Notes: generated from the letters alone by a model not told the origin. A DNA stretch of 56,986 bases from a virus (IMGVR_UViG_3300031857_020009:1-56986), one strand, 5' to 3'. Counted from the stretch's first letter, positions 1 to 36,602 are shown. Numbers and translations: made by a program.

Positions 1-290
1 GTAACAGTAACTGCAGTACCAATACCTACAATTGTTGCACATGGAGAATCTTGACCATATTGTGCAAATATGTTATCAGTCCAAGATTCAAATGTTCCAT
101 CAGTGAAATCTGCATAACTAAATGTACTGATTTCTCCGTAGTAACCTACTGTTACATCTCCGTTAATTGGTACAATTATTGTTTTAATATTTCCTGTGCA
201 AGGATCTGTATAACTATAATTATAGGTTTGTGCATATGCTAAACTAACAAATACACTAATAAATATTGATATGAATAATTTAAGTCTCAA
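1..290 (-). CDS. Secreted protein, truncated at the window edge (not in ORF track)
   Basis: TTG at 290 overlaps the TGA of the upstream gene. Frame stays open to position 1: MRLKLFISIFISVFVSLAYA-QTYNISYTDPCTG..., a Sec signal peptide with AxA cleavage followed by Gln. Confidence 0.75.
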   Translation of the reverse strand, partial: MRLKLFISIFISVFVSLAYAQTYNYSYTDPCTGNIKTIIVPINGDVTVGYYGEISTFSYADFTDGTFESWTDNIFAQYGQDSPCATIVGIGTAVTV

Positions 291-1012
291 TGCGTAAATA
301 TACCTTTGGTAATCATTCTGCTAACAATTCGACTTGAAGCCGTCTCAAGTGCTTTTTTGGTGCTGATACCTATGGTAGATTGATTGAACTTAACTTCATC
401 TGTTACATCTCCTAAAATCGATGACATTTTTACTGTGCTTGCTTCTCCTAAACCCGAACCCATTATCACTTGTCCAGTCTCAGCATCAACAAACTTAACT
501 TGTAATCCTAAACGAGTTGTTTGAGTAGTGGTTTGTTTGCCGTCTACTTTAACTACCTCATCTTCTGATACTGAAAAATCATAAACTTCAATATATACAA
601 AGTACTTTGCTAAAATAACATTGCCTTTAACTTCTATTTTATTTGATGATATTCCTTTATCAGATGCTTTATCTTGAGCAATCATTCGTTGCTTGATTTC
701 TTCTTTTTCTTCAGTAAACACAAAGCGATTAGTATATTCTAAATATTCTAACACGATGTTTGCAACACCTAAACCTACACGCTTATCTTTAAGTTCGGGA
801 TACATTTCATAAAGTTCTTCATTAATTCCAATTTTCAATACTTGAATTGGAATTTGTACTGCACCATCATAATCAGCTACAGCTTCAATGCTTTGTTTCT
901 TTTCAAACTCAGCTTGGTATTGTTCTGTTTTAACAGATCCTATACCTTGTGCTGAGGCTGACTTACAAGAAGCCAGCCCTAACACAAATAAAAATGGAAG
1001 TAATCTTACCAT
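287..1012 (-). CDS. CsgG/HfaB-family lipoprotein
   Basis: Lipobox LASC at residue 16; CsgG-like segments LGVANIVLEYLEYTNRFVFTE and RLGLQVKFVDAETGQVIMG. Confidence 0.7.
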   Translation of the reverse strand: MVRLLPFLFVLGLASCKSASAQGIGSVKTEQYQAEFEKKQSIEAVADYDGAVQIPIQVLKIGINEELYEMYPELKDKRVGLGVANIVLEYLEYTNRFVFTEEKEEIKQRMIAQDKASDKGISSNKIEVKGNVILAKYFVYIEVYDFSVSEDEVVKVDGKQTTTQTTRLGLQVKFVDAETGQVIMGSGLGEASTVKMSSILGDVTDEVKFNQSTIGISTKKALETASSRIVSRMITKGIFTH

Positions 1013-1329
1013 GACTCTTCTTCTACTTTTTTAGGTTTCTCAGCAGGTTGAGTTGCTGCAGGTTTTTCGACTATTCTTTCACGGATAATTGTGCCGCCGC
1101 CATTATCAACCTTTTGTTTGTTTTCTTGATTTTGTTGTACATTCACAACCACAGGTGCTGCTGCAGGTGCTGCTTGCTCTGTTTTAGTTTCTTCTTTTGG
1201 CTCTTCTTCATGACCACCAAACAATGTAACTCCTAACCAAGTTCCACCACCAGCTACAACCGTGCCTAATGTTCCAACGATAGTCTTCTTAAGACCACCC
1301 CATGTTCCATCATTCATTTCTTCTGACAT
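1006..1329 (-). CDS. Small single-pass membrane protein
   Basis: Gly-rich hydrophobic N-terminal helix followed by a low-complexity E/P/A/Q tail; coupled to both neighbours. Confidence 0.7.
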   Translation of the reverse strand: MSEEMNDGTWGGLKKTIVGTLGTVVAGGGTWLGVTLFGGHEEEPKEETKTEQAAPAAAPVVVNVQQNQENKQKVDNGGGTIIRERIVEKPAATQPAEKPKKVEEESW

Positions 1330-1330
1330 A

Positions 1331-3244
1331 TTATTCCTTTACTAATTTTTCTACTATCGGAGCATTTGTTTCAGTAGACAAACTTAATACGTACATACCC
1401 GGTGCTAAACGTCCTAAGTTCTTAACATATGTGTATTGTCCTGCAGGAAGCTGACCCGATAGTATTGTTACAACTTTTCTTCCTTGCAAATCATAAACTG
1501 CTAATTGAGCATCTGCGGATGCATTTTCTACATTAAATGTAATAGTCACATCATCTAATACTGGATTTGGATAAATTTCAACAGTATTTAAATCAATAAC
1601 CCCGCCTACTGAACTTTTAACTACTTGCAATATACCGTTTGTCGGAGTAATCTCAAGGTCTTTAGACACAGTATTTCCAGCATATTTCTCAGTTGTCCAA
1701 ATTGGAGATTCTGTCCATGCAGATTGAGGTTGTAATGCTAAGAATTGTAAACGAACTACTTCCGTATTGTCTTGTAATGGATTAGTATTGGTAGCATCAT
1801 ATCCACCCCAATGAATTTCTCCATTATTAGCATTAACATATGTCAACCATTTCATTGCAGGTGATGATGAATAGATATTTTTAAATTCTAATACTGTTTC
1901 ATCATAATCAAAACCAAATTGCAATGAATTAAGTTGTACACCATTTGTGTAAACTGTTACTGGAATATCAACCAAGTTACCTGCTTGCACTGATAAGTAA
2001 GGAACATTTACTTCAATTGATGTGGTTGGAAAATCATATTCAACTGTATTGTCAATGACATTGTAAATCTGAGAAGGAACACCTGGTGTTGGATCAATTA
2101 AAATATCAATCGGCGTCATACGTGCCATATGATAACCTGTACCATTTGCATCACCTGGTACTGCAACATAGAATGTTACCGTCGACGGTTGTCCTGCAAT
2201 AATCTCATAATTGAAGTTAGTTACACCTGGGATAGTTGAGGTATGGTTTGTCGATGAACCATCAATTGTAGCAAATTCAGTTGCTGTAAAGAATTTAACA
2301 TCTTTAGTGTTATTTGGCCATTGAGTAAAGTTACCTGCTACGCGACTAAATACACCGTATGCATCTGTAATTGTTACGTTGTTAGATCCATTTATATCCG
2401 CAGCATAATAATCAAAGCCAGACATTGTACCATTACCTAATACCCATTGATTAATTAATTGTGCATCTGTTGCAGATATAATATTACCTACACCCATTGT
2501 GTCACCTTTAATAGCTAAACGTACATCCCAATAGCTTGTATCAATGTTAACTGTAAATGTAAAGTTACCTGAGTTATCAGTTGTATAAGCAGAATGTTGA
2601 GTCCAAGTTGAACCACCTGCAGGACGACGCTCTAATGCAAATGGTAAGTCTTTAGCACCCGTACCAGTTACGTTAGTAAATGTTCCTGCAAATGTAAATG
2701 TAGGTAAAATGAATTCACCGCCATAGTTATGCAAATTCAATGTAGTATCAATACCAGCACCGGTTGCAGCATATTGTTGAAAGGTTTGCGTACCTGTCCA
2801 TGTCAATGGCGTAATTGATGCAATGTTGTTGAATACTGCTGGCGCTGCGTGAGTAAAGGTAATTGCAAAGCGCTCGCCGTTAGCTAAAGTATATGTAGCT
2901 GATGCACCCGTATATACTAAAGTAATTGTAATAAAACCATTAGCAGTATTAGTTACATATTGTAAATCTAAGTTCGTAGTTGAACCAATTAATGCAACCG
3001 TTGCATTTGTAAATGCTACATTGTCATAAAATACCCGGAACTGTGTTGCAGTGTATTTTGTTAATGTAGTGTTCTGCAATGTAATGTTTGCAGTTGTTGT
3101 TCCTTGCGATGTTGGTGCCACTTGGTATTCTGCATGGATCAAACCATAAATACCATTACCTGGTGCTGAAGGTGCTTGGGCTAATGTAACTGATGTTGTT
3201 AGTAAAACTGCAAGGAGCGTTAATAAACTTGTTAGTTTTTTCAT
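1331..3244 (-). CDS. Secreted cohesin/dockerin-like protein with T9SS type A C-terminal sorting domain
   Basis: Signal peptide; dockerin-like repeats (ISATDAQLINQWVLG, AADINGSNNVTITDA); cohesin-like VDIPVTV...LNSLQFGFDYDETVLEF; CTD IYPNPV...VYDLQGRKV...LAPGMYVLSL...EKLVKE. Confidence 0.85.
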   Translation of the reverse strand: MKKLTSLLTLLAVLLTTSVTLAQAPSAPGNGIYGLIHAEYQVAPTSQGTTTANITLQNTTLTKYTATQFRVFYDNVAFTNATVALIGSTTNLDLQYVTNTANGFITITLVYTGASATYTLANGERFAITFTHAAPAVFNNIASITPLTWTGTQTFQQYAATGAGIDTTLNLHNYGGEFILPTFTFAGTFTNVTGTGAKDLPFALERRPAGGSTWTQHSAYTTDNSGNFTFTVNIDTSYWDVRLAIKGDTMGVGNIISATDAQLINQWVLGNGTMSGFDYYAADINGSNNVTITDAYGVFSRVAGNFTQWPNNTKDVKFFTATEFATIDGSSTNHTSTIPGVTNFNYEIIAGQPSTVTFYVAVPGDANGTGYHMARMTPIDILIDPTPGVPSQIYNVIDNTVEYDFPTTSIEVNVPYLSVQAGNLVDIPVTVYTNGVQLNSLQFGFDYDETVLEFKNIYSSSPAMKWLTYVNANNGEIHWGGYDATNTNPLQDNTEVVRLQFLALQPQSAWTESPIWTTEKYAGNTVSKDLEITPTNGILQVVKSSVGGVIDLNTVEIYPNPVLDDVTITFNVENASADAQLAVYDLQGRKVVTILSGQLPAGQYTYVKNLGRLAPGMYVLSLSTETNAPIVEKLVKE

Positions 3245-3271
3245 TTATTCTCTCCTTTTTAATGTTCAATA

Positions 3272-3279
3272 ATAAATAT
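3272..3279 (-). promoter_or_regulatory. ATATTTAT motif, putative late promoter
   Basis: Same 8-mer found at gene boundaries at 7674, 12717, 15529, 19166, 21457, 34314 and 52537. Confidence 0.55.
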
Positions 3280-3296
3280 CAAACAGGAAAGATAAA

Positions 3297-3698
3297 CTAT
3301 TTACTTTCTAACATATCCATTATTCGTTTTTTAGCTTTTTCGCCCAATGGAATTGAATTGCCGCCTTCATCAATTTGAACAAATGTTATATGAGTCTTTA
3401 ATACTAAATCTTGTTTGCCAGTATAAACATTGTGTGCTCGGGCTTCCATGTACAATGTCATTGAAGTGTTGCCAACTCGTTTAGGATATCCATATATCTT
3501 TAATAACTGCGATTCCTTTGCAGGACGTTCAAAGTTACATTGGTCAATTGATACTGTAACCATTCGGGGTGTATCGCATAGTTGCATTGAATATCCTGCA
3601 GCTGATGCATCAATCCAACTCAATAATTTACCACCAAATAAGTTTCCATGAAAACCTAAATCGCTTTTTTTAATTGGATGTGTATTTAATAATTCCAT
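3297..3698 (-). CDS. Acyl-CoA thioesterase (hotdog fold, YciA-like)
   Basis: DLGFHGNLFGGKLLSWID...MVTVSID...F.RP...VGNTSM motif. Confidence 0.85.
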   Translation of the reverse strand: MELLNTHPIKKSDLGFHGNLFGGKLLSWIDASAAGYSMQLCDTPRMVTVSIDQCNFERPAKESQLLKIYGYPKRVGNTSMTLYMEARAHNVYTGKQDLVLKTHITFVQIDEGGNSIPLGEKAKKRIMDMLESK

Positions 3699-3701
3699 AA
3701 T

Positions 3702-4310
3702 CTAATCGAAGAAAAATATTTGAAAAAATCTACTAGATGGTATATCCCAACCAAAATAGTCATGTCCTGAATGTAATAGTTTGCCATCAAAAATAACTAA
3801 TCGATTGAACACATTGCCAACTGTATCTACTCGTTCATATGGTGTTGCATCTAGAAAAGTATGTTGATTAAAAACTAAATTTCCTTCTCCAGCTTCCCAA
3901 TTAATTTCATCACTATGTCGTTTTTTTGATTGTTTATGTCGAAAGAAACTAGTCCCAGATTGCGGAGGTGCATCGGGTGTTAAATAAATAACTCCTGCCC
4001 ATTTTTGTGCATCCATATGAAATACAGACGGTACGCCAGCTTTACATGATTGAAATCTACCATTGATTCCTACATCATACCAACCATATCCAGATTCTGT
4101 ATGATCTGATATTTTTCTTCCCATAATTTCTTCAAAACGTTCTTTTAAACCTTCGAATAGAAATTGTTTTCCTGTACGTAATCCGACAGCGCCTTGATCT
4201 TCATAATACAGCTGCTGCAATGCATAATCTCTAACAGCATATGGATCTTCATAAAAGTCATCTACAACGTAGAATCTAGGATTTTGATTTTTGTTTAAAT
4301 TGAAATTCAT
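3702..4310 (-). CDS. DUF6445-like putative 2OG-Fe(II) oxygenase
   Basis: VVDDFYEDP, HxD (FHMD), WAGVIYLTP, NRLVIFDGKLLHS, RFFQIFF. Start moved to ATG 4310, just after the thyA stop. Confidence 0.7.
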   Translation of the reverse strand: MNFNLNKNQNPRFYVVDDFYEDPYAVRDYALQQLYYEDQGAVGLRTGKQFLFEGLKERFEEIMGRKISDHTESGYGWYDVGINGRFQSCKAGVPSVFHMDAQKWAGVIYLTPDAPPQSGTSFFRHKQSKKRHSDEINWEAGEGNLVFNQHTFLDATPYERVDTVGNVFNRLVIFDGKLLHSGHDYFGWDIPSSRFFQIFFFD

Positions 4311-4314
4311 AATT

Positions 4315-5373
4315 TTAATTTGATAAAGGAAATTTAATTGTGGAATGAGATTGATAATTTTCAACGTAAAAGTCGGCAGGTTGAATATGTTCAATTTGAT
4401 CAAACAAACTTACATCCGGGTTCCAGAACTCATCATTCATAACCAATTGACCTAAAGCCATTGGGGAGCGTGTTAATTGTTCTAGAACGCCATTTTGTTG
4501 ATCTAAATAAATGTGACAATCACCTAAGTTGCCAATTAACTGATCTGCAATCATATTTGTTTCGCGTGCCAATATTTCTAACAATAAAGCATAAGAAGCA
4601 ATATTAAATGGTAATCCAAGTGGCGTATCTACTGAACGTTGATTCCACATTAAAGAGATTGCACGTTTAGGCGTCGAGTCCTTAGCAATTTCCTCAACTA
4701 TATAAAGATTCTCCCATTCGACATCAGTATTTTTCATAACCCATTTGACTTGTTCTTCCCACGTCAATTCTCTTGTATAAACTTGGAATCCATAATGACA
4801 AGGTGGTAGAACCATTTGGTTTATCTCACCTACGTTCCAAGCATTGACCATCAATCGTCTTGAGTCTGGATTTGTTTTAAGATCTTGTATTAGTTTTTGT
4901 ATTTGATCAATGCCTGGTTTTCGTTTGGTACGTGTACCTAATATGCGATTGGTTTCATATCGACTTCCCCACTCGCGCCATTGATATCCATATATAGGTC
5001 CTAACTCACCCCATACCATTGCCCAATTTTTATCAGTTTTGATAAGATTGATAAACTCTTCTTTTGTATAAGATGCTTCATGTTGAGTTTCTTCTAAATA
5101 ATTCTTATAAGCATCACCATCCCAGATATGGCAATTGTTATCAACAAGAAACTTGATGTTTGTATCACCACGTAAAAACCATAACAACTCAGTTACTATT
5201 GTTTTAAATGGCATCTTCTTTGTAGTCAATAAAGGAAAGCCTAAACTCATATCATGCCGAATCTGTCTTCCAAATACTGAACGCGTTCCTGTACCGGTAC
5301 GGTCTTGTTTAGTTACTCCATTAGTTAAAATGTCGTGTAGTAGTTTTAAGTAGTCGTGTTCTATGTTGTTCAT
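4315..5373 (-). CDS. thyA: Thymidylate synthase
   Basis: DRTGTGT, FPLLTTKK, ELLWFLRG, LPPCH, QRSVD, LGLPFNIASY, GDCHIY. Start at ATG 5373 (MNNIEHDY). Confidence 0.97.
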   Translation of the reverse strand: MNNIEHDYLKLLHDILTNGVTKQDRTGTGTRSVFGRQIRHDMSLGFPLLTTKKMPFKTIVTELLWFLRGDTNIKFLVDNNCHIWDGDAYKNYLEETQHEASYTKEEFINLIKTDKNWAMVWGELGPIYGYQWREWGSRYETNRILGTRTKRKPGIDQIQKLIQDLKTNPDSRRLMVNAWNVGEINQMVLPPCHYGFQVYTRELTWEEQVKWVMKNTDVEWENLYIVEEIAKDSTPKRAISLMWNQRSVDTPLGLPFNIASYALLLEILARETNMIADQLIGNLGDCHIYLDQQNGVLEQLTRSPMALGQLVMNDEFWNPDVSLFDQIEHIQPADFYVENYQSHSTIKFPLSN

Positions 5374-5543
5374 TTTGACCATTCTACAGTGAAACCAAGA
5401 TCCCAAAAGAATATGCTAGCGCTTAAGCAAACTAATCTTACATTGCGGGATATTTTGTTGTGTGTTACAAACATTGTAGGCCACAGAGCCATTTGTGTAA
5501 ATCCACCCCCTAGGGTAGCGTGTAAGTAAAATCTAATTTTCAT
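5370..5543 (-). CDS. Small hypothetical protein, 57 aa (not in ORF track)
   Basis: MKIRFYLHATLGGGFTQMALWPTMF...FFWDLGFTVEWSK; fills the gap and its TGA overlaps the thyA ATG (ATGA). Confidence 0.65.
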   Translation of the reverse strand: MKIRFYLHATLGGGFTQMALWPTMFVTHNKISRNVRLVCLSASIFFWDLGFTVEWSK

Positions 5544-5581
5544 TATTATACTTTATTACGTGATATCCGAGCCAACATAAT

Positions 5582-5824
5582 TCAATTATCCACACACTCA
5601 GTATCACTAGGGTTGTCCATTTCAACATATTCAGCATCTTTTATTGTTTCGCAAAATAAAAAGTGAGTATTAGATCTTAACACATGATCGGCTTCTCGCC
5701 ATTGCATATACAATTGTACATATTCCATATTAGGCTCTTCATCTAATTTTTTTGCAAAATGAGATATTGGTTTTTGATCTAATACAATGTACGCTCCATC
5801 TCCGTGTTTGTATACTTGTTTCAT
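5582..5824 (-). CDS. Hypothetical protein
   Basis: 80 aa ORF with ATGA overlap to the upstream gene. Confidence 0.65.
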   Translation of the reverse strand: MKQVYKHGDGAYIVLDQKPISHFAKKLDEEPNMEYVQLYMQWREADHVLRSNTHFLFCETIKDAEYVEMDNPSDTECVDN

Positions 5825-6030
5825 CTAATATACTTTTCTAATCCTAAAACAATTACATCTGATATTTGCAATTTAGGATTTTCTTTCATTATTCGTAATG
5901 CTTCTGTAACTACTTCTGAAGAAATACCAAAATCATCTGCTTCATGTAACACATACGTTACAACGTCCATGGACCGATTGATATCTTCAACCGGCCCAAT
6001 TTCGAAATATTTTTTCGCGAACGTCTTCAT
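5821..6030 (-). CDS. Hypothetical protein
   Basis: 69 aa ORF immediately after groEL. Confidence 0.65.
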   Translation of the reverse strand: MKTFAKKYFEIGPVEDINRSMDVVTYVLHEADDFGISSEVVTEALRIMKENPKLQISDVIVLGLEKYIR

Positions 6031-6032
6031 GA

Positions 6033-7682
<1,650 letters not shown>

Positions 7683-7690
7683 CTAATGAA

Positions 7691-9766
7691 TTATTTTGCG
7701 ATTTCCAAAAACTTTCGATTCAATGTTTTAGAAACATCTGTCATACTTTCTGGATTAATAAATTGAGCATCCGGACCATACATCTTGCGGAAATTATCAA
7801 CGGTTGACTCATATAAATAAGCATCTTTGATAAAGTAACTAACTACATTGATGCCATTCTCACGGAATCCATTTACCACTCGGCGAGTAAATTCAACGCC
7901 ATTGTAACTATAACTAGTTCCTCTAACACTTGTAGGCTCACCATCTGAGTAATTAACAAAGATACATTCATCACCCTTTGCATCAGCTTTGATATACTTC
8001 TCGATACTTTTGAAAGCAATGCCTTCCGGCGTGCAACCAAAACAATCTAGGTAACGGAACATTGTACGAATCTTATTCATTTTATCCTTTGCGGAATCAT
8101 ATGCATAAATAGTAACTGCTCGTTCGCCATTGTTATCAAATGTATGTGTACCTCGCAACGAAATTTGTACTCGGATGCCGGTTGTCATTGATGCTGCTTG
8201 TGCAACTGCAACCGCTGAGGTAATTGAATTACGAAACTTTTCGCCATCCATCGATCCAGATGCATCAATTGAAATATGAATAAAGTAATTCTTGAATCGA
8301 TCTGTAACAATTCTATGAAAAACATTTACATTATCATATCCTAATTGAGAAATCAATCTACGATCAATCTTACCTGATTGCAACCTTGTGCTTTTCAAAG
8401 TTCGATCTGCATTACGTAATTGCAATTTTCTACCTAACTGTTTACCTAAAACAATACCTCGAATAACGGCTTGGTCAACCCTTTTGATTGATTTAGCTCT
8501 CCATGAATCTTTTGCTACATCTGCTTCGAAGTCAACTCTACCACTAACATATTGCTCTGATTGAGAATCAAATAAGCCAGGCATTGCTGCAATGATACCG
8601 GGTGTGAATTTTTTAATAACAATTGTATCAACAATATCAGATTCGCCGCCGCCTGTTGCTACTTGTACCGTTTCTGTACCTGCTTCTCGGATTGCATTAA
8701 CGGTAGATGCTTGAGACTTTGATAACTTACCGGTCTTCTTTGTATCACCTTTTATGAAGCTTCGTTGCTTTTCAATTGCTTTATCTAATGACTTTCGATC
8801 TTTAGGAGATAATTGAGACTGAATTGATGTCATTGGGATATTGCTATCACCATCTTCATCAGATTCTGCATCACCTAAGTCTTCACCTAAGTCTTCACCT
8901 AAGTCTTCACCTAAGTTTTCACTTTGTCCTGCGGCTTGACCTGTTGCTGATATTTGTGTTTGTGGTTGTTCGTCTGCTTCTTCCAATGCTTTGCGAACAA
9001 CTGCATATACATCGATGGCAACATCTAATGCATCCTGTGTCGATTTGAGACGTGCAATATTTTTTAAATCAATCACATTCCAAATTGTTCGAAGATGTTT
9101 CAATGCATCTAAGTTTCTATTTGGATTAGTGAAGTTAATGATGTGGAATAAATAATCATCCAATGTCTCTTGTTTCTTTTCATCGAGCTTAAGAGCTTTG
9201 TCAATTACTTTGTCATTAAAGTATTTGTTATACATTGCTTCATAATACATACGATAACCTGGAGCGGTCTTATAAATATGAAAGTCAATGCGTCGATCTT
9301 CAACCCAATTCAAAAGATCTTTTATGATGCCATAATCTTCATCCGTTAATTTCATATCCGGGTCGGCACCTCGCATCATTACTCGTTCAGCCATTTTAGT
9401 ATCACTTATTCTACTAGTATAACCACCATTTGGATGTCTAAACATGTTAAAGTCTGTCAATGCAATATGCGAACCTTCATGAAGAGCTAATCCAACTGCA
9501 GGATCAAAATTATCACCATCTAATTTAGTTCCAATAACTACACGCTCGCCGTCGGTATAACTATTATCCGAACTTTGGAATACTACTGGAATTTGTTTAC
9601 CAGTAACAATATTAACAAAGTTACCAATTGCTCTTTGTGTTGCGGCTAATTTAGTATAATCAATACCAGACTCGCGTTTGAAGTCTGTATCAAAGTCATC
9701 CATCCAAAAGCTAGATGCTTGATCGTATTTATACTTGCCGTTAATAATTTTATTGATGATACTCAT
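7691..9766 (-). CDS. VWA-domain protein with N-terminal HExxH region (CobT-like partner of MoxR AAA+)
   Basis: LALHEGSHI...NWVEDRRID; SGKIDRR; MIDAS motif IDASGSM...GCTPEG...YSDGEP. Confidence 0.85.
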   Translation of the reverse strand: MSIINKIINGKYKYDQASSFWMDDFDTDFKRESGIDYTKLAATQRAIGNFVNIVTGKQIPVVFQSSDNSYTDGERVVIGTKLDGDNFDPAVGLALHEGSHIALTDFNMFRHPNGGYTSRISDTKMAERVMMRGADPDMKLTDEDYGIIKDLLNWVEDRRIDFHIYKTAPGYRMYYEAMYNKYFNDKVIDKALKLDEKKQETLDDYLFHIINFTNPNRNLDALKHLRTIWNVIDLKNIARLKSTQDALDVAIDVYAVVRKALEEADEQPQTQISATGQAAGQSENLGEDLGEDLGEDLGDAESDEDGDSNIPMTSIQSQLSPKDRKSLDKAIEKQRSFIKGDTKKTGKLSKSQASTVNAIREAGTETVQVATGGGESDIVDTIVIKKFTPGIIAAMPGLFDSQSEQYVSGRVDFEADVAKDSWRAKSIKRVDQAVIRGIVLGKQLGRKLQLRNADRTLKSTRLQSGKIDRRLISQLGYDNVNVFHRIVTDRFKNYFIHISIDASGSMDGEKFRNSITSAVAVAQAASMTTGIRVQISLRGTHTFDNNGERAVTIYAYDSAKDKMNKIRTMFRYLDCFGCTPEGIAFKSIEKYIKADAKGDECIFVNYSDGEPTSVRGTSYSYNGVEFTRRVVNGFRENGINVVSYFIKDAYLYESTVDNFRKMYGPDAQFINPESMTDVSKTLNRKFLEIAK
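8871..8922. repeat. 12-bp tandem repeat, ~4.3 copies, encoding (E-D/N-L-G)n
   Basis: tcacctaagtct x3, then tcacctaagttt, then tcac. Confidence 0.9.
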
Positions 9767-9784
9767 AGCTCTTTATTTTTATAT

Positions 9785-9813
9785 ATTATAAGAAATAAAT
9801 TGGAATAATCCAA
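9785..9813 (-). promoter_or_regulatory. TTGGAT-N17-TATAAT promoter (VWA gene)
   Basis: Exact 17-nt spacer; one of 11 such sites. Confidence 0.75.
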
Positions 9814-9822
9814 CCAGATAGT

Positions 9823-9850
9823 AAAAAAAGGAGACAATTTCTTGCCTCCC
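9823..9850 (-). terminator. Intrinsic terminator
   Basis: GGAGGCAA-GAAA-TTGTCTCC followed by T7 on the minus strand. Confidence 0.85.
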
Positions 9851-9868
9851 CTTTTGAGCTATGAAAAA

Positions 9869-11017
9869 TTAGAATGGCGTGTTTTCTGTATCCATGGCAA
9901 CATCTCCCGTATTGAAAATGTCATTCATTTCAGTTGCCATATGTTTTTGAATAATTTGCTTAACAAATGTTCTTTCTGAATCCGAACCACCCGATGCATC
10001 AAAGAATGGAAGAACTGCTACCTCTGCGGCTTCGGTAAGAGAGAAGCCATCTGCTAACAATTCACAAATTCGAACCGTCATACGAGTGGATACCATTGTG
10101 GTAAGTTTACCTTCTTCCGATCTCCATTCTTTACGAGTTGCGTCAGCAATATCAGCTACTGCGTGAATCATTTTTGCAGACACTGAATCTCCGAAGCGAC
10201 GTGTCAATAAGTCTTCTTCTTGAGATAAAGAAAGAATATCTACTTCAATAATTTCAAAACGGTCCATCAATGCACGGTCTAATACGCGTGTCGATGTATA
10301 TTCGGTACCGATGTTTGCTGTAGCAATAAAAGATACGCCTGGAGCTACGGTTACTAATGGAGCATTAATATCTTCATCAAGTCGAAGGTAACGCTGACCT
10401 TCATCTAATACTGTCATCAAGATGTTCCAAGCTTCAGGGTGCGCACGAGACAACTCATCCATAAGGATAACTGCATTCTCGGTTTGAATTGCTTTCACAA
10501 AGGCAGACTCGTCAAAAGTGGTTTGGCCATCTTTGAAGTGAGTGTTGCCAATAAGCGTTGCTCTAGGATCTTGAGTTGCACCCAAGTTAAAATAAAAGAA
10601 AGGACGATTGGTTGCTACTGGCAAATCTTTTGCTGCTTGTGTCTTACCACATCCTGCAGGACCAACCATCATTATGTTCTTTCCGCGGACTGCACTACGA
10701 ACTAAATACTTCCATTTAACATCAGACATTTCTAATGATGCTGGTTTGATTTTGTGAGCATTGTTAATTAATTGCAACTCTGGTGTTAATTCTTTTTTGA
10801 TTTCCATTACGGGTTCCGGTGTTGGGATTTCGCCTTCTCGAGCTACTCGCTTAGCACGACCCGTGTCTTCATCTAATACTAATAATTCATCATTTGCAAA
10901 TGCATGACTAATCATGATGCCGCGGAACTTATCCGTGATGTCAACATTAGTACCTAATTCGATGATTCTTTGTTTGCCATTTACTAAGGTTGGCACACCA
11001 ATTGTCTTGTTTTTCAT
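9869..11017 (-). CDS. MoxR/CobS-like AAA+ ATPase
   Basis: Walker A GPAGCGKT, Walker B ILMDELSRA, ATANIG, LDRALMDRF. Confidence 0.9.
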   Translation of the reverse strand: MKNKTIGVPTLVNGKQRIIELGTNVDITDKFRGIMISHAFANDELLVLDEDTGRAKRVAREGEIPTPEPVMEIKKELTPELQLINNAHKIKPASLEMSDVKWKYLVRSAVRGKNIMMVGPAGCGKTQAAKDLPVATNRPFFYFNLGATQDPRATLIGNTHFKDGQTTFDESAFVKAIQTENAVILMDELSRAHPEAWNILMTVLDEGQRYLRLDEDINAPLVTVAPGVSFIATANIGTEYTSTRVLDRALMDRFEIIEVDILSLSQEEDLLTRRFGDSVSAKMIHAVADIADATRKEWRSEEGKLTTMVSTRMTVRICELLADGFSLTEAAEVAVLPFFDASGGSDSERTFVKQIIQKHMATEMNDIFNTGDVAMDTENTPF

Positions 11018-11034
11018 AACTCTTTATTTTCTAT

Positions 11035-11063
11035 ATTATATGAAATAAGAGTTACGAATCCAA
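11035..11063 (-). promoter_or_regulatory. TTGGAT-N17-TATAAT promoter (AAA gene)
   Basis: Near-duplicate of the VWA gene promoter and leader. Confidence 0.75.
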
Positions 11064-11177
11064 CCTTTCATCGGACTTTTTATGTTTCTTTTTGCGAGAA
11101 TATGATTTTTTATTTTTATGCACGATAGGACGAGTAGCTTGCCAAATTTCCTGCATTGTTACTTCTATCTTTTCCAT
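11052..11177 (-). CDS. 41-aa basic protein with ArfA-like motif (not in ORF track)
   Basis: MEKIEVTMQEIWQATRPIVHKNKKSYSRKKKHKKSDERLDS; has its own promoter at 11184-11212. Confidence 0.65.
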   Translation of the reverse strand: MEKIEVTMQEIWQATRPIVHKNKKSYSRKKKHKKSDERLDS

Positions 11178-11183
11178 GACATG

Positions 11184-11212
11184 AATATAAGAAAAAGGAT
11201 ACAAAGATCCAA
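11184..11212 (-). promoter_or_regulatory. TTGGAT-N17-TATATT promoter
   Basis: 17-nt spacer; 6 nt upstream of the small ORF start. Confidence 0.7.
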
Positions 11213-11213
11213 A

Positions 11214-11963
11214 TTACCACTTACGGCAAGACCAATATCTTGCTGATGTTCTATCTTTGGCTGTATGACAACGGTGTCTAGCTCTAAATGAACGTCTACG
11301 TGCAGGGTTGCTCTTACGGATTCTCATATTAGGGTCGCCGAAGTTAACCTTTACAACGTTGCCTTTTTCATTCTTAACGTAGACTTTGAATTTCTTTACA
11401 TCGCCGCGCATTGGTTTGCCTAATTTAACTTTGCGACCTTGGTATTCTGCTTCTGTTATTACATCAAACTTACCAGCTTTGATATCTTCCATCATTGCAA
11501 TTGCACATTCTGTACAAATAGACATTTCTTCCATGGATTCCTTTTCTAATTCTTCATTTTTTGTTTTGTTACCCCAATTCTTAGCACCCTTTTTACGACA
11601 AGCTGAGAGAGCCAATGAACCATATGCTGATGGCCATGTTCCCCCATTGCGTGTGTAACGAGCTTTAACTTTGCGATAACATGCATCTCGTTTTGCTTTT
11701 TTCTCCTCATCAATAACTGCTTCAGCTTTAGGAGTACGTTTACCCATACCAACTCTACGCTTTTGTGCTACTAATGAATCCTTTTCTTTTTTATCAAATG
11801 AACTCCATGTTTTAGGAGTATCTTTAGAAACTTTTTTGCTAGGACGACATTTTTTTACACCTTTGGTTTTATCATTACCACAAGGACGTCCATGTTGATC
11901 AACCCATTTTTCTTTAACCCAGCGGCGCAAATCTTCATTCATTATGTCTTGCAAACGGATCAT
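11214..11963 (-). CDS. Highly basic multi-module protein (DUF5872/DUF6321-like modules) with I/L-x-E leader
   Basis: MIRLQDIMNE leader; modules LRRWVKEKWVD..., KRDACYRKVKARY...WPSAYGS, and AEYQGRKVKLGKP...FRARHRC...ARYWSCRKW. Confidence 0.7.
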   Translation of the reverse strand: MIRLQDIMNEDLRRWVKEKWVDQHGRPCGNDKTKGVKKCRPSKKVSKDTPKTWSSFDKKEKDSLVAQKRRVGMGKRTPKAEAVIDEEKKAKRDACYRKVKARYTRNGGTWPSAYGSLALSACRKKGAKNWGNKTKNEELEKESMEEMSICTECAIAMMEDIKAGKFDVITEAEYQGRKVKLGKPMRGDVKKFKVYVKNEKGNVVKVNFGDPNMRIRKSNPARRRSFRARHRCHTAKDRTSARYWSCRKW

Positions 11964-12712
11964 TATATCTCCTGACGAATTCCTAGCTTAGGTAAACGTT
12001 CTCTCCATACCTTTAAGATATTTTGTTTATCTGTTTCAGTTATAGATTGATTGCTAACCCATATATTTAAATAATTATCAACAACTTGTTTAAAAGGCGT
12101 ACGTGTTTTTTTAGCTCGCAAATACAATCCTTGAATCATTGCATCTATTTCTTTTGGCAATGTAAAGTATCGAGCTGGGGGCAATGCACCTGATTCAATT
12201 TTCTTGCGCATTGCTTGATCTGACGGAATATATTTACTGTCAATGGTATTCCAACCCGATTGAGTTACATGCTCAATTTCATGACGCAATGTATCACGCA
12301 AATCCATTGCAACTTCTGATAATACTTTTGGGTAATCTGCTGGGTCTAATTGAAATCGAATTTCAATAAGTGGAACTTCATTTGAATGACGTTGTGTGTT
12401 ATTGTAAGCATCGCCTCCTACAAACAAATCATTTAAATCTTCAATCCATTGTACTTTTAATTCCAAATAAAACTCAACAGGAATATCTGTATTTTCTATT
12501 TCTTCGAAGTATATATTATCAAATTTGGCAGGATCTTGTATATTAGGTACATCTTCGCCTTTTTTAAAGTATATTTTTTCTCCCCCAAAAAATCCTTCTG
12601 GATCTTTAGTACAAGCATAACTGTCTTTGATTACTTGTAATAGTTTACGAGACAATGTAGTCACTAAACTATCATAACGACCTTCTACAATTAACTTTTT
12701 TAAAGATATCAT
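11963..12712 (-). CDS. HExxH zinc-metallopeptidase-like protein with I/L-x-E leader
   Basis: Start at MISLKKLIVE; LRHEIEHVTQ plus downstream YFTLPKEIDA. Confidence 0.6.
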   Translation of the reverse strand: MISLKKLIVEGRYDSLVTTLSRKLLQVIKDSYACTKDPEGFFGGEKIYFKKGEDVPNIQDPAKFDNIYFEEIENTDIPVEFYLELKVQWIEDLNDLFVGGDAYNNTQRHSNEVPLIEIRFQLDPADYPKVLSEVAMDLRDTLRHEIEHVTQSGWNTIDSKYIPSDQAMRKKIESGALPPARYFTLPKEIDAMIQGLYLRAKKTRTPFKQVVDNYLNIWVSNQSITETDKQNILKVWRERLPKLGIRQEI

Positions 12713-14307: not shown

Positions 14308-15192
14308 TTACATAACCATTAACTTAAGATCATGATCTGTATTAGAATCTCCAGTGCTTAATTTTAAAATATACGTCCCAGGCATTGTTGGCGATTCAAA
14401 TTTTAATACGCCTTGTTGTACATTATCCCAATGATGTTGATCAACAGACTGGCCGGCGCTTGTATATATAATTAAATCGACTGAATCTAATGGTAATATA
14501 TCTGCAGATACGTTTATAGTAATCATATTTCCGGGCTTTGCTGGATTCGGATACATGTTATATTTAATACTAGATTTTGTAGTAGTTGTATTTTTTGCTG
14601 TAGCTGTATTAGTATTAGCTGGTAATTTACCTTTTATAAATTTATCAATCTTTAAAGCATTATCAATCCGTTGTTGTTTGCTTCCTGCTATTGGTTTGAA
14701 AACATTATCCATTAAGTTTGCAGCACTTGCAGCAATATCTCCAGCAACTATACTACGATCATATTTTTTAACATATTCATTTGATAAACCTTTGTATGAA
14801 CCATCTCGTTGTTTGTAATACATTAATGATTTATCAATACCGGGTACTGGTTTACCGTTCCATAGATATCCATTTAATAATTCGCATTTCATGAAATCCA
14901 ATTGTGTTGACAAACTACTCTTTGTTTTACCTATGAATTTTGCAAATGCAGTTAATGCTTGTTTACGTCCAAAGCCTGGATCCCATTGCATTAATCCATA
15001 TCCTCCGGTACCGCCTTCTTCAGTAGTATTAGGTTCACATCCAGATTCATGAGCTATGTTACCCGCTAATGCAACAGCCCCGGTGTAACTAAATCCTCGC
15101 GATTGCAACCCCGTAACAATATCTTTAGCTTTATCTAATTCGCCTGTTTCATTTAAATCAAACTCAAACAATAAGCTTTTCAAACGTATCAT
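14308..15192 (-). CDS. Phage tail-type lysozyme fused to a T9SS-CTD-like domain, with I/L-x-E leader
   Basis: MIRLKSLLFE; GAVALAGNIAHESG...GYGLMQW...QLDF; C-terminal MYPNPA...IYTSAGQSV...PGTYILKL. Confidence 0.8.
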   Translation of the reverse strand: MIRLKSLLFEFDLNETGELDKAKDIVTGLQSRGFSYTGAVALAGNIAHESGCEPNTTEEGGTGGYGLMQWDPGFGRKQALTAFAKFIGKTKSSLSTQLDFMKCELLNGYLWNGKPVPGIDKSLMYYKQRDGSYKGLSNEYVKKYDRSIVAGDIAASAANLMDNVFKPIAGSKQQRIDNALKIDKFIKGKLPANTNTATAKNTTTTKSSIKYNMYPNPAKPGNMITINVSADILPLDSVDLIIYTSAGQSVDQHHWDNVQQGVLKFESPTMPGTYILKLSTGDSNTDHDLKLMVM

Positions 15193-21484: not shown

Positions 21485-22258
21485 TTAGTTTACAATATAC
21501 TTATGATTAGTTTCAATATCATGTTTAATATACGAACCCCATTTATATTTAGCATATTCATGTCCATCTGATTCAGATTGTTTTCTTTGTTGTTCTTTTT
21601 CTGCAGTCATTGTAGTTAATGATACAAAATGATAAAAATGACAATTCCATGTTCTGATCATCTTAAGTCCGGAAAGAGAACATTTTAAAAAGAAATCCCA
21701 ATCGGCAACCATTCCTAATTCATAATTTTCATCCCATCCACCTAATCGTATATAATCTAATTTAGACATAAAAATAGGCAATGTAGAACCAGTTTCTTCT
21801 TTTTTATCTCCAGATGCATAATGATAATCAAATAACCAAAATGCTTCTAAATCAAATGTTTTTGGATCTCGACCCAAATCTTCTATTATAAATTGTTTAA
21901 ACATACTAGGATATGGTTCAATCTGATTAGGTGTTATAACAGTGCCATCTTCCCAATCATCCTCTAAAGTAGTATCCCAAAATCTAGGAAATACATTGTC
22001 ATCATTTACTATTAATATTTTGTCATGTTTAGCATTGTATACGCCTAGGTTAGTTCCCCGACAAAGACCTTGATTAATTTCTAAATTCAATATATCAATT
22101 GAATCTTTCCATCGGTCTAAGACCTCTTTATTTAAGTCATAGAAGCCATCTACAACAACTATTATTTGATTTTTATTTTGTTGTCCAGTAATAGCTGATT
22201 TTAAACATAAATCTAAAGCATCTGGGCTTTTATATGTTGGTATAATTACTGATATCAT
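21485..22258 (-). CDS. Glycosyltransferase family 2
   Basis: MISVIIPTY, IIVVVDG, LIVNDDNV, GGWDE...DWDF. Confidence 0.85.
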   Translation of the reverse strand: MISVIIPTYKSPDALDLCLKSAITGQQNKNQIIVVVDGFYDLNKEVLDRWKDSIDILNLEINQGLCRGTNLGVYNAKHDKILIVNDDNVFPRFWDTTLEDDWEDGTVITPNQIEPYPSMFKQFIIEDLGRDPKTFDLEAFWLFDYHYASGDKKEETGSTLPIFMSKLDYIRLGGWDENYELGMVADWDFFLKCSLSGLKMIRTWNCHFYHFVSLTTMTAEKEQQRKQSESDGHEYAKYKWGSYIKHDIETNHKYIVN

Positions 22259-22950
22259 ATTGAGGCCCAATTAGTTAATGGAGATAACCATGCAGTTTCT
22301 CCATGGGTTGAATAACCAGGTAATGTCGTTATCAATAATTCATTTAAATTTCTCAATTCTAAAAACATATGAAAATCATTAGGATGAGTTGATGATGTAT
22401 GTTTTCTTAATATCATTTCTGTTCGTTTTAGTGTAGATACTTTAGATGCAAATGTCATTGTAGTACTATTTGTAATCTTCCAATGACATGAATTAGTTAA
22501 ATAAACGCGCGTATCTTCAGCTCCACCCTCACAATATGGATTGCCTCCATTTTGCGGACTTAAATATTTATCTGGATGGTCATATAATGCAACGAACGAA
22601 GCTCCTAATGTAAAACCTTCTTGCAATACATCTGGAGAATAACGTTTATGTAGATAATCATTTTCAACGAAATAAACAATTTCATCATCATTCCATTGCA
22701 ATGCTTTATCTAAAGCTAAATTAAAAGTGCCGGCACCATGGCCTATAGAAACTTTTTCGATATTATCTGGATTAATATAATTTATAATCATATTAATAGT
22801 ATCATCACTACAATTATCTGCAATAACATATATGTCATTAATATGTTCGTAAAATATATTACAAAAATTTCGCAAACATAATTCATTATTAATATATTCT
22901 GGCTTTTCTTTTTTATAACCAGCATCTGATATTCTATAGATTATTTTCAT
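22255..22950 (-). CDS. GT-A fold glycosyltransferase-like protein
   Basis: VIADNCS, IVYFVENDYLH. Confidence 0.65.
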   Translation of the reverse strand: MKIIYRISDAGYKKEKPEYINNELCLRNFCNIFYEHINDIYVIADNCSDDTINMIINYINPDNIEKVSIGHGAGTFNLALDKALQWNDDEIVYFVENDYLHKRYSPDVLQEGFTLGASFVALYDHPDKYLSPQNGGNPYCEGGAEDTRVYLTNSCHWKITNSTTMTFASKVSTLKRTEMILRKHTSSTHPNDFHMFLELRNLNELLITTLPGYSTHGETAWLSPLTNWASI

Positions 22951-23963
22951 AACATTGTTTTTATATATTTAACATAATTTTGAGATGATTGAAATACATC
23001 GCCTCCAGATATAGTTGTTTGTAAGTATTCATTAAATTTACCATGATCTAGTTGATATTGAATAGAATCAAATATTTGTTGTTTATTTAAATCAACTAAG
23101 CCTGGATAATGCTCAAATTTGCCAATTTGACCGCAACCTTTAATCAACACTGTAGGAATTCCTAATTGAATTGGTTTAAATGCTAATGTAGATGGGGCTG
23201 ATATAACTACTGCGGATTTTGCTATTAAATCATCAATATTTTCTGAATTTGTTATGACTTCACATTCTAATAAATTGTTTACATATGAAATGTCATTAAC
23301 ATAATCCGGTTTATCGAGTCTTGTTTTTATTTTTACTTTTATTGGCAAGTTAAACTGTTTAGATAATTCTAATATTCCAGATTCTTGAACAAATCTTTGA
23401 TCAAAATTAATAGGAAATATAGATCCGCGGTTTCCTAGGAAATTAGTTATAACTAATATATGTTGGGGTTGAACTACTACATTAACTAATGTGTCATTTG
23501 CAGGAATGCCACCATTATGAAATTCCATTTTAACAGTATAACTAATACCTGATGCGTCTTTTGTAATATTTTCATTTCCGTGGACATTGCCAATTACTTT
23601 GATATTTCTATGCTTACATTCATTATAAAAATGTGGAATATTAAATTCTTGCATTTCTCGATTATCATCATAAATTACAAATTTGTATGAATTTATGTCA
23701 ATAAAATTTAATAATGATTCGTGAATACTGTCTCCGTGGAATTTAATTCCAGGCCCTTGTATTACATTATTAAAATACTGATTGTATTTATTAATTGCAA
23801 CAAGCCGCTCATCAATATCACCAACCCATGGGGTATTTAAACTAAATAACCCAACGCAAAACAAATCAATTTCATATTCAATTGATAACAATGGTATTAT
23901 AGGCCAAAGCTTTTCAGCAACTCTATGATTTGTAAATAATAATAATATTTTACTTTTTGACAT
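22947..23963 (-). CDS. Putative GT-B transferase (sialyl- or polyol-phosphate-transferase-like)
   Basis: C-terminal IDDLIAKSAVVISAPSTLAF...LGIPTVLI; position in the glycan island. Confidence 0.5.
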   Translation of the reverse strand: MSKSKILLLFTNHRVAEKLWPIIPLLSIEYEIDLFCVGLFSLNTPWVGDIDERLVAINKYNQYFNNVIQGPGIKFHGDSIHESLLNFIDINSYKFVIYDDNREMQEFNIPHFYNECKHRNIKVIGNVHGNENITKDASGISYTVKMEFHNGGIPANDTLVNVVVQPQHILVITNFLGNRGSIFPINFDQRFVQESGILELSKQFNLPIKVKIKTRLDKPDYVNDISYVNNLLECEVITNSENIDDLIAKSAVVISAPSTLAFKPIQLGIPTVLIKGCGQIGKFEHYPGLVDLNKQQIFDSIQYQLDHGKFNEYLQTTISGGDVFQSSQNYVKYIKTML

Positions 23964-24663
23964 ATCGATTAGATCTAGGTAAACATTTAAATTGATCTGT
24001 TAATGGCAAATATGTATTTCTATAGTTATGCGAAACAAATGTTTGTTTTAATCCATTAACTTTAACGCCTGGATGTTTCCATAATGAATACATCATTGAA
24101 ATTTGATCTTCTGTATTCCATTTTGCTGTCTCATCAAACCATGTTTTATTAAAATTTCGTATTATTTCGTTATTTCTTCGATATAATATACCATTTTCAT
24201 ATAAGCTATTGTTTTCTGGATATCCTTGTTGTTGATAATCTAAACCTTGATTAATAATCATCTCCTTAGGATCGCGCGGTGGGTTTCTATTGATAGTTTC
24301 ATTTACTTCTTGATATAAGCACGTTCGATCACAATGAAGATGAACTGCTAAATCAAAATCATTCAAATGTAATGAAAATAAATCATGCGGGTCATATGTA
24401 AAATAAATTTCATTATCCATCCATAACCATGCATCATATTCGGGTAATAATTCTTCAGGGGATGTTTTGCATTTTCTAGCAGTCCATCGCCCAGATCTCC
24501 ATACATCCATTTTACGTACATCCCAAAAATTGGATTCTAAATAATCACTATTAGTAAACGCAATATAATCTATTCCGTCTTTGTCATGTACATATGGTAT
24601 AAGATCTCCATATAAATAATCCGGGTGATCTGTAAATAATGCTGTATAAACTGCTAATTTCAT
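23950..24663 (-). CDS. DUF616 (TOD1/MUCI70)-like glycosyltransferase
   Basis: VYTALF, DYIAFTN, H.DRTCLYQE, LYENGILYR, DQISMMY. Confidence 0.7.
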   Translation of the reverse strand: MKLAVYTALFTDHPDYLYGDLIPYVHDKDGIDYIAFTNSDYLESNFWDVRKMDVWRSGRWTARKCKTSPEELLPEYDAWLWMDNEIYFTYDPHDLFSLHLNDFDLAVHLHCDRTCLYQEVNETINRNPPRDPKEMIINQGLDYQQQGYPENNSLYENGILYRRNNEIIRNFNKTWFDETAKWNTEDQISMMYSLWKHPGVKVNGLKQTFVSHNYRNTYLPLTDQFKCLPRSNRYVKK

Positions 24664-26091: not shown

Positions 26092-26092
26092 A

Positions 26093-26680: not shown

Positions 26681-26681
26681 A

Positions 26682-31543: not shown

Positions 31544-31544
31544 G

Positions 31545-34291: not shown

Positions 34292-34313
34292 TTATTCCTT
34301 TTATAACTTTATT

Positions 34314-34321
34314 ATAAATAT
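34314..34321 (-). promoter_or_regulatory. ATATTTAT motif heading the glycan island
   Basis: Followed by AAAGTTATAAAAGGA, as in the groEL leader. Confidence 0.55.
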
Positions 34322-34324
34322 ATA

Positions 34325-36565: not shown

Positions 36566-36573
36566 TTTTCTAT

Positions 36574-36602
36574 ATTATATAGAATTATTTGTTAGAATCC
36601 AA
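36574..36602 (-). promoter_or_regulatory. TTGGAT-N17-TATAAT promoter
   Basis: 17-nt spacer. Confidence 0.75.

Follow-up and report, generated by a model that had tools for sequence, protein, structure and literature searches.

The viral record IMGVR_UViG_3300031857_020009 of IMG/VR (56,986 bases, CheckV completeness of 24%; the whole record was analysed and is referred to here as the window) carries at positions 3-3279 the upstream half of a block of seven or eight genes that is conserved, essentially restricted to phages and codes for exported proteins. This block is very probably a phage-made envelope module, whose products include a cohesin protein with a type IX secretion system (T9SS) sorting tail, a predicted inner-membrane protein, a lipoprotein-type member of the CsgG/LpoB superfamily, a protein with a modelled outer-membrane barrel and a secreted protein that mostly carries a lectin head. 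The reading we prefer, with a probability of about 0.4, is that the block works as a lectin display on a cohesin scaffold exported by the T9SS. The window contains genes A, B and C and a 96-codon stub of gene D:

1331-3244, minus strand: gene A, open reading frame (ORF) of 637 amino acids (aa), predicted exported T9SS cargo and scaffold protein
1006-1329, minus strand: gene B, ORF of 107 aa, predicted bitopic inner-membrane protein
287-1012, minus strand: gene C, ORF of 241 aa, lipoprotein-type protein assigned to the CsgG/LpoB fold superfamily
3-290, minus strand: gene D, first 96 codons only, with a TTG start that overlaps the stop of gene C, cut by the contig end
3-290, minus strand: contents of the gene D stub, a predicted signal peptide and a small N-terminal domain with a Cys pair

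Distribution and genomic context of the block

The four ORFs are closely packed (a gap of 1 nucleotide (nt) between A and B, overlaps of 7 nt between B and C and of 4 nt between C and D), and the first-pass annotation of this DNA was right in describing them as tightly coupled genes with export or membrane signals. All window ORFs of at least 100 aa (n = 67) are carried by the minus strand, except four that are nested inside longer minus-strand ORFs. Phage genes on the same strand encode DNA polymerase, both subunits of ribonucleotide reductase (RNR), a DnaB-like helicase, UvsX, a clamp loader, GroEL and thymidylate synthase (ThyA), and the block adjoins the nucleotide-metabolism genes (ThyA and RNR). 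A nucleotide search of 50,697 phage records returned three isolates of Flavobacterium phage vB_FspM_immuto (immuto) as the sole match, with 78.5% identity at window positions 568-942, within gene C.

Using gene C as the query, 190 matches on viral contigs were confirmed, the best 80 of which lie on contigs of up to 308 kb. A set of 80 loci (79 of the best 80 of these matches together with immuto) was then compared, with contig L003, whose gene C product is 97% identical to that of the window, as the reference. Gene C is present in 80 of 80 loci and A-B-C-D occur in that order in 65; the other 15 loci are cut by a contig end no more than 1.8 kb after C or 0.5 kb before C. The most conserved block gene is C, with a median identity to the L003 copy of 80% over the 80 loci, whereas the values are 61% (B), 55% (A) and 47% (D) for the others. 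The earlier proposal that the operon runs past the window was borne out by L003, which shows the rest of D and further genes (E to H), and the rest of the block was read from this contig. Likewise, the concern that the region might be a host flank was removed by the viral record itself, by the phage replication module, and by the recurrence of the block, which was seen in 80 IMG/VR loci as well as in the complete genome of a cultured phage.

The cultured phage immuto (MW353175, genus Immutovirus) has the same block in the same order, with genes 14-18 corresponding to A-D: genes 14 and 15 together make up the counterpart of A (34% and 32% identity), gene 16 is that of B, gene 17 that of C, with 71% protein identity to the L003 copy, and gene 18 that of D (26%). 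Its gene 13 encodes a C-type lectin with the same C-terminal module as the E proteins described below, gene 12 a secreted nuclease and gene 19 a homologue of G. The immuto block differs in that A is split into two genes, the lectin and nuclease genes lie upstream, and the gene 17 product (gp17) is without the lipobox Cys. In the immuto record, the only annotations given to these genes are "cohesin domain-containing", "lectin C-type" and hypothetical protein. By their titles and abstract openings, six of the eight papers naming immuto deal with DNA modification, polymerases or ecology and not with the block, and a literature search, with subscription journals and supplements outside its reach, found no paper describing it.

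A scan of one genome per species across 185,579 bacterial and archaeal species, using an alignment of 10 gene C sequences, yielded five loci. Three of them are small or phage-like contigs of metagenome-assembled genomes (MAGs) with the block or parts of it, one of which (254 kb) also carries tail-collar-like genes as judged by sequence reading, and the other two are distant bacterial homologues of C. Since the scan gave few and mostly phage-like loci, the block is essentially phage-only. Of the two bacterial homologues, the one in a Cloacimonadota MAG (L087:451-7564; 36% identity) passes Pfam CsgG and comes immediately behind genes for two large Por_Secre_tail proteins and one GLUG-repeat protein, a lone bacterial instance in which a CsgG-like protein is paired with T9SS cargo, and the one in an Ignavibacteriales MAG precedes a second CsgG-like gene and a CHASE2 cyclase.

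Predicted proteins and upstream region

Signal peptides were judged from Kyte-Doolittle hydropathy over 19 residues together with a reading of the N-terminus, and 27 homologues of gene A were aligned. The following parts were recognised in A:

3176-3244, minus strand: predicted signal peptide, residues 1-23 (MKKLTSLLTLLAVLLTTSVTLAQ); hydropathy maximum 1.96, Q23 invariant in 27 homologues
2705-3175, minus strand: N-terminal beta-rich domain, residues 24-180, of uncertain family; possibly a second cohesin-like domain (a lead from a feature search)
2255-2704, minus strand: immunoglobulin-like (Ig-like) domain and dockerin-like module, residues ~181-330; Dockerin_1 below cut-off, match to 4uyp_B
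1577-2047, minus strand: cohesin domain, residues 400-556, assigned through Pfam Cohesin matches of homologues and through PDB cohesins
1334-1576, minus strand: T9SS type A C-terminal sorting domain, residues 557-637; PF18962 and TIGR04183

The N-terminus of A is hydrophobic (the maximum lies at residue 4) and ends in TLAQ-A, as expected of a Sec signal peptide. Its C-terminal tail matches Por_Secre_tail (PF18962) with an E value of 7.1e-11 and 42.7 bits (cut-off 27; 45.8 bits in a six-frame search) and NCBIfam TIGR04183 with 42.7 bits (cut-off 23), and a T9SS type A tail is present in 27 of 27 homologues. The tail that the annotation had reported is thus above both curated cut-offs, and we infer that A may be exported by the host T9SS and attached at the cell surface. 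Elsewhere in the window, a protein of 294 aa (14308-15192, minus strand) combines a Phage_lysozyme2 domain (E value 3.5e-19) with a C-terminus that resembles a T9SS tail (YPNP...GTYILKL); this tail-like domain is below the cut-off (19.5-22.5 bits against 27) and no signal peptide was seen at the N-terminus, so that the protein could be a lysozyme with a sorting-domain-like fold.

The cohesin-like and dockerin-like domains that had been noticed in A were also recovered, the former through homologues and a PDB profile and the latter through a solved dockerin. Pfam Cohesin matches 22 of the 27 homologues (best E value 2.7e-12) and the immuto gene 15 product (gp15; E value 5.9e-9, 36.7 bits, cut-off 24.1), which aligns to A residues 408-625 with 32% identity (E value 5e-29). 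When a profile of A residues 400-556 was compared with PDB, the best six matches were cellulosomal cohesins or cohesin-bearing scaffoldins (E values 0.0037-0.055), with 2vn5_A as the best of them (E value 0.0037, full length). A type I dockerin is a duplicated calcium-binding loop-helix repeat. The dockerin-like module of A has one loop that fits the calcium-binding pattern, and its first repeat is degenerate. This loop, D283-I-N285-G-S-N-N-V-T-I-T-D294, whose D283, N285 and D294 are invariant in the 27 homologues, is one that we take to fit the dockerin calcium loop. The solved dockerin 4uyp_B matches A residues 245-314 (E value 0.004), and Dockerin_1 (PF00404) was found at E ≤ 0.01 in 8 of the 27 homologues and CarboxypepD_reg in three of the 27. 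As for the N-terminal domain of A, 28 of the 30 nearest named clusters in an Atlas feature search carry Cohesin in 13-25% of their members (score 0.93), which offers a lead towards a second cohesin-like domain; hhalign gave no similarity between this domain and the cohesin of A (probability 0.5%), and no match was found among PDB chains.

Gene B encodes an acidic N-terminus, a KK pair, a Gly-rich hydrophobic segment, a low-complexity tail of ~65 aa rich in Pro, Glu, Lys and Gln, and a terminal Trp (W107) that is invariant in an alignment of 27 sequences. Its hydropathy maximum of 1.29 is weak in comparison with the usual threshold of 1.6, and no family was found in Pfam, NCBIfam or PHROGs. From this layout, B is predicted to be an inner-membrane anchor with its tail in the periplasm. 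Some relatives have one or two additional small membrane-protein genes between B and C (loci L083:6635-6994 and L084:5914-6957).

The start of C, MVRLLPFLFVLGLASC, reads as a lipobox (LASC). Of 23 aligned phage copies, 16 have the lipobox Cys and seven do not, a Gln (Q22) at the likely signal-peptidase site is found in all 23, and nearly all distant homologues have the lipobox. Searching 1.84 billion representative sequences with a profile of the phage C proteins retrieved only 275 proteins at E ≤ 0.001. This profile matches P0203, P0206 and P0188 with E values of 1e-18 to 3e-21, and these three score 63.7, 50.5 and 43.9 bits, respectively, with Pfam CsgG (cut-off 20.8; best E value 1.9e-17). 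Among 30 distant homologues scanned with Pfam, CsgG was found at E ≤ 0.01 in 14 and above the cut-off in 12, with LpoB as the second match, and CsgG is the name given by the Joint Genome Institute (JGI) to two among the 120 close homologues listed. The intermediate homologues are an indirect but solid indication that C belongs to the CsgG/LpoB superfamily. The same profile found no CsgG chain among PDB sequences. In a Foldseek search with a poor structural model of C, CsgG, HpaA, PelC, GNA1162, FlgT and LptE came out on top with template-modelling (TM) scores of 0.16-0.29, the CsgG chains having probabilities of 0.96-1.00 and TM scores of only 0.24-0.27.

CsgG pores are built by membrane-spanning beta-hairpins. 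The model of C, whose quality is too low to settle this point, has a long hairpin at residues 137-176; averaged over the family, the outer half of this hairpin is polar (E150-E152 and K159-R167). The curli partners CsgE, CsgF, CsgA and CsgB were absent from the Pfam matches of block genes in the window, L003 and immuto. Together with the failure of the direct CsgG model (see the next section), these observations mean that C does not look like a curli-type CsgG channel, and we do not class it as one. The "CsgG-like" label of the first-pass annotation therefore holds for superfamily membership through intermediates and for the lipobox but not for the direct family model, and a CsgG secretion pore was not upheld. 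Gene G (147 aa) encodes a shorter protein that is paralogous to C (probability 96.4% and E value 1.3e-9 in hhalign with the C family). Among the distant homologues of C, P0221, P0225, P0226, P0233 and P0260 are fused to caspase-like Peptidase_C14 (three) or Ser/Thr protein kinase domains (two), which hints that this CsgG-like subfamily may act as a periplasmic sensor or anchor module in bacteria.

The D product starts with a hydrophobic N-terminus ending in AQ (hydropathy maximum 1.80). Its full-length version in L003 has 501 aa, in which a signal peptide is followed by a ~90-aa domain whose Cys pair is invariant, a linker and a conserved C-terminal domain of 216 aa. In alignments of 27 homologues, D29-P30-C31-T32 and P83-C84 are invariant, and the linker, rich in Asn, Ser, Gly, Thr and Gln, is hypervariable and disordered, being nearly absent in some homologues and several hundred residues long in others. 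The 216-aa domain at the C-terminus of the L003 protein, which lies outside the window, was modelled with a predicted local distance difference test (pLDDT) value of 83.2 and a predicted TM score (pTM) of 0.76 as 12 long antiparallel strands. By Foldseek, this domain resembles the autotransporter beta-domains of EstA (E value 8e-8), NalP, Hbp, EspP and BrkA (TM 0.54-0.65 on the query) and intimin, and also the 12-strand porins KdgM (TM 0.72 on the target, root-mean-square deviation 3.6) and NanC and the nucleoside channel Tsx. The C-terminus of D is thus confidently modelled as a 12-strand outer-membrane barrel. No Pfam barrel family was matched at E ≤ 1 by any of 28 copies of the D barrel domain, and direct searches gave no family for its N-terminal domain. 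A word-index search with the barrel retrieved 110 proteins of 118-378 aa, all of them from phage relatives and none functionally named, with Lectin_C on P0368 as the only Pfam tag.

The secreted protein E has variable heads: in 27 loci, Lectin_C was found in 21, Laminin_G_3 in 11 (together with Lectin_C), GEVED in four and Ig_7 in one, and one head was unassigned. All E proteins share a C-terminal dockerin-like module with a canonical DVNNDGxIxxSD loop, which aligns to A residues 146-341 with 29% identity (E value 2e-21) and is thus homologous to the middle of A, an extension of the surface-assembly idea of the first-pass annotation. Gene F encodes an Endonuclease_NS protein with a signal peptide and was found in 24 of 80 loci, among them the 97% relative, and H (L003:14297-14746; 149 aa), the last gene of the block, has an HExxH motif and no family match. 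No PHROGs family was matched by A, B, C, D, E, G or H. Pairwise distances, which come from only 20 loci and are dominated by one deep clade split, can serve only as a lead to which proteins may be in contact: the N-terminal domain of A follows G and both domains of D (rank correlation 0.83-0.85) more closely than A's own cohesin (0.57), B follows C (0.68), and the E module, with values of 0.12-0.39, follows none of the others.

The region upstream of gene A separates it from a thioesterase gene (3297-3698):

3245-3296, minus strand: intergenic spacer of 52 nt, putative promoter and translation start region, with ATATTTAT and an AGGAG-like stretch just before the ATG of A

ATATTTAT lies at 3272-3279, 27 nt 5' of this ATG. 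Of 27 relatives, 16 retain it in the 70 nt upstream of gene A despite the diverged surrounding spacer (the version upstream of immuto gene 14 is AATATTTAT). In the window, the GroEL gene (start 7643) and the gene at 32804-34291 also have it 23-31 nt upstream, in a similar context. A promoter role of ATATTTAT is plausible from this placement. As a motif over-represented across the window it was rejected, since there are 15 copies whereas shuffled sequences give an expectation of 17.4. Promoter-like elements of two classes seem to be present in the few true intergenic gaps (7644-7690, 9767-9868, 34292-34324 and 36566-36600, minus strand), namely TATATTTATA upstream of GroEL, gene 32804-34291 and gene A, and TATAATATA(G/T)AAAA upstream of genes 7691-9766, 9869-11017 and 35993-36565; they may correspond to two temporal classes.

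For expression, assembled contigs from four RNA-library runs of four studies were compared with window positions 1-12000; such contigs hold no information on starts, strand or level, may derive from DNA carry-over, and are uninformative where they leave stretches uncovered. In three of the four runs, A, B, C and D are partly covered by contigs with at least 99% identity, one of which spans the C/D junction, a weak indication that the block is transcribed. At the GroEL gene (6033-7643, minus strand) the contigs reached depths in the hundreds to thousands and showed numerous mismatches and loose ends, most likely due to cross-matching from cellular groEL and not to phage expression. Two further features of the window were observed. 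A MoxR/AAA_5 ATPase gene (9869-11017, minus strand) adjoins a gene for a 691-aa protein with a weak CobT/VWA-like match (7691-9766, minus strand), so that 7691-11017 looks like a phage MoxR-VWA pair. Positions 22001-32000 have a low GC content (27-29% against 31-39% elsewhere) and dense short minus-strand ORFs, are followed by two glycosyltransferase genes (31545-34291), and may represent a surface-sugar or DNA-modification island.

Proposed lectin display and alternative explanations

Under the preferred reading, an infected cell of the Flavobacterium type would place the block proteins in its own envelope. All of them would cross the inner membrane via Sec, and the host T9SS would carry A across the outer membrane by means of its C-terminal tail. 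The cohesin of A could then bind the calcium-loop dockerin-like module of E, so that the lectin would hang at the cell surface, while B (as inner-membrane anchor), C and G (as rings under the outer membrane) and D (as barrel) would form an envelope part that anchors or passes the assembly. The likely purpose would be that infected cells bind glycans or other cells, or that phage receptors are covered.

A number of observations weigh against this reading. Each step of the mechanism is one that we infer from sequence, and the only host on record is that of the cultured relative, Flavobacterium sp. LMO8. The window's own A has no match to Pfam Cohesin (PF00963) at E ≤ 0.01, and its Dockerin_1 score of 18.6 bits (E value 0.0021) is below the cut-off of 22.9, which is why the term "dockerin-like" is used. 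In Flavobacterium, a good number of type A cargo proteins leave the cell without being anchored to it, so A need not stay attached to the surface. E is without a T9SS tail, which leaves its exit route from the periplasm unexplained. Between phages whose cohesins are 71-86% identical, 11 of the 36 close pairs have E modules that share less than 40% identity, and cohesin and E-module distances show a rank correlation of only 0.35 (to be read with the reservation given above for these distances); such swapping of the E module among phages with similar cohesins argues against a tightly matched cohesin-dockerin pair. With regard to C, Pfam CsgG (PF03783) gave no match at E ≤ 0.1 with the protein and none at E ≤ 10 in a six-frame search of the window, the structural model built from 23 close sequences is poor (pLDDT 54.3), and VIA-align of this model against the same fold set gave Z values of at most 5.3. 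Finally, the endolysin adjacency considered below, seen in 31 of 60 loci, fits a lysis role equally well.

A more ambitious version of the lectin display, which we consider unlikely, is that the block forms a self-contained viral surface organelle resembling a cellulosome, in which CsgG-fold rings and the barrel would anchor or pass the cohesin scaffold and interchangeable dockerin-lectins would be plugged onto it. If this were true, infected cells would adhere to glycans, to particles or to hosts not yet infected, which would bring the burst close to new prey, and lectin swapping between near-identical phages would tune the target of adhesion.

A role as a lysis accessory, which the first-pass annotation had not raised, appears similarly unlikely. 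Here B, C/G and D would bridge or weaken the envelope late in infection, in a spanin-like or outer-membrane-disrupting manner or as a lysis timer. A two-component spanin consists of a small outer-membrane lipoprotein and an inner-membrane protein with a helical periplasmic part. The overlap of genes B and C recalls spanin pairs and is the only trait in common with them: C is a large (241 aa), globular protein with 71-93% conservation, unlike small o-spanins, seven of its 23 copies have no lipid-anchor Cys, and the tail of B is of low complexity, so B and C were rejected as a two-component spanin. In loci with at least 6 kb of downstream DNA (n = 60), endolysin-like genes start 2.7-5.4 kb after the end of gene C in 31, directly after the block where it was read through; PHROG endolysins were confirmed in L004, L011, L047 and L084, and a holin-like membrane protein of 82-88 aa precedes the endolysin in L004 and L011. 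With the probes used, however, no endolysin was found after the block in the other 29 loci or in immuto, and the block in the window follows nucleotide-metabolism genes. The T9SS-tagged cohesin protein and the exchangeable lectins would be left unexplained. A lysis role has been proposed for phage CsgG in the case of the csgGF genes of Melnitz (PMC9004378).

Somewhat less likely still is superinfection exclusion or receptor masking, in which the exported proteins would cover or jam receptors of related phages, with the A tail occupying the T9SS or the lectins coating glycans. This would not account for the high conservation of C and the barrel, and the exclusion proteins known to us are usually single small membrane proteins, not eight-gene blocks. 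It agrees with the predicted export of all products, with the T9SS tail of A, with lectin heads that vary fast between close phages as in an arms race, and with the reported mapping of Flavobacterium phage resistance to gliding and T9SS genes (10.1101/2020.10.02.323337, PMC9804748).

It is improbable that the block is a scavenging device in which a C/G and D channel, the secreted nuclease and the lectins capture outside DNA or glycans to feed the replication of a very large genome. The Endonuclease_NS protein of gene F, the ThyA and RNR genes beside the block and the resemblance of the D barrel to Tsx, a nucleoside channel, and to KdgM and NanC, which are small sugar porins, would suit this idea, and uptake has been suggested as the simplest role of phage curli pores (PMC7029224). 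However, the nuclease is missing in most loci, the cohesin, the dockerin-like module and the T9SS tail have no place in it, and the tether and N-terminal domain of D would be unexplained. Least of all is it to be expected that the block is a host flank, a chimeric assembly or a set of plain virion proteins, as might be thought from its position at the very end of a fragmentary contig, because the same order occurs well within contigs as long as 308 kb and in the complete genome of a cultured phage, the scan of 185,579 species gave no close homologues on bacterial chromosomes, every product has a signal peptide or membrane segment, unlike virion proteins assembled in the cytoplasm, and no PHROG structural family was matched.

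Relation to known systems

Phage genes with T9SS type A sorting domains have been reported for "Cryophage", for which hijacking of the host T9SS was proposed (Bellas et al. 2020, PMC7468147). As in the block, type A cargo is encoded by a phage and varies between phage variants; in contrast to the block, the cargo consists of enzymes and a PA14 protein in variable islands, and the available part of that paper mentions no cohesin, CsgG-like protein or barrel (PMC7468147). The csgG/csgF "curli" clusters of pelagimyophages and of the Methylophilales phage Melnitz, with proposed roles in uptake, aggregation by "sibling capture" or lysis timing, likewise comprise a phage-borne CsgG-family gene that is absent from the host and lies in a variable region near lysis or replication genes (PMC7029224, PMC9004378). 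As described in these papers, their CsgG is close to bacterial curli CsgG and is accompanied by CsgF (PMC7029224, PMC9004378), whereas C of the block fails Pfam CsgG, has no CsgF, CsgE, CsgA or CsgB beside it among the Pfam matches of block genes, and has a T9SS cohesin protein, a tethered barrel and lectins as partners.

Cellulosomal and non-cellulosomal cohesin-dockerin assemblies resemble the block in that the cohesin of A is nearest to scaffoldin cohesins and that modules with a calcium-binding DxNxDGxIxxxD loop are located on a separate protein with variable binding heads. The block differs from them in being encoded by phages in a didermic setting of the Bacteroidota type, in its putative anchor (a T9SS tail versus S-layer homology (SLH) domains or sortase), in the single clear calcium loop in A, and in heads that are lectins and not enzymes. 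Insofar as the poor model of C can be relied on, its fold class is that of LptE, PelC and CsgG, which recalls the LptE-LptD and PelC-PelB pairs. D shares with type Va autotransporters a C-terminal 12-strand barrel and an N-terminal domain on a long linker, but differs in that no helical linker or beta-helix passenger was seen. By sequence, C and D fall into none of these lipoprotein-barrel or autotransporter families; other uncharacterised phage barrels and "autotransporter beta-domain" proteins are contained in BFVD.

The block is a conserved, undescribed phage envelope module made of known kinds of parts. Phages are known to carry single envelope genes (T9SS cargo, CsgG/CsgF and outer-membrane barrels), whose functions have so far only been proposed. 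The occurrence of several envelope parts in one conserved block, together with a cohesin, dockerin-like modules and swapping lectins, points to a built structure and not to a stray gene, and the block is testable in the cultured, non-pathogenic pair of immuto and Flavobacterium sp. LMO8. If the display model is true, viruses would re-dress the bacterial surface with an adhesion apparatus of their own, which would have a bearing on aggregation, particle attachment and phage spread in lakes.

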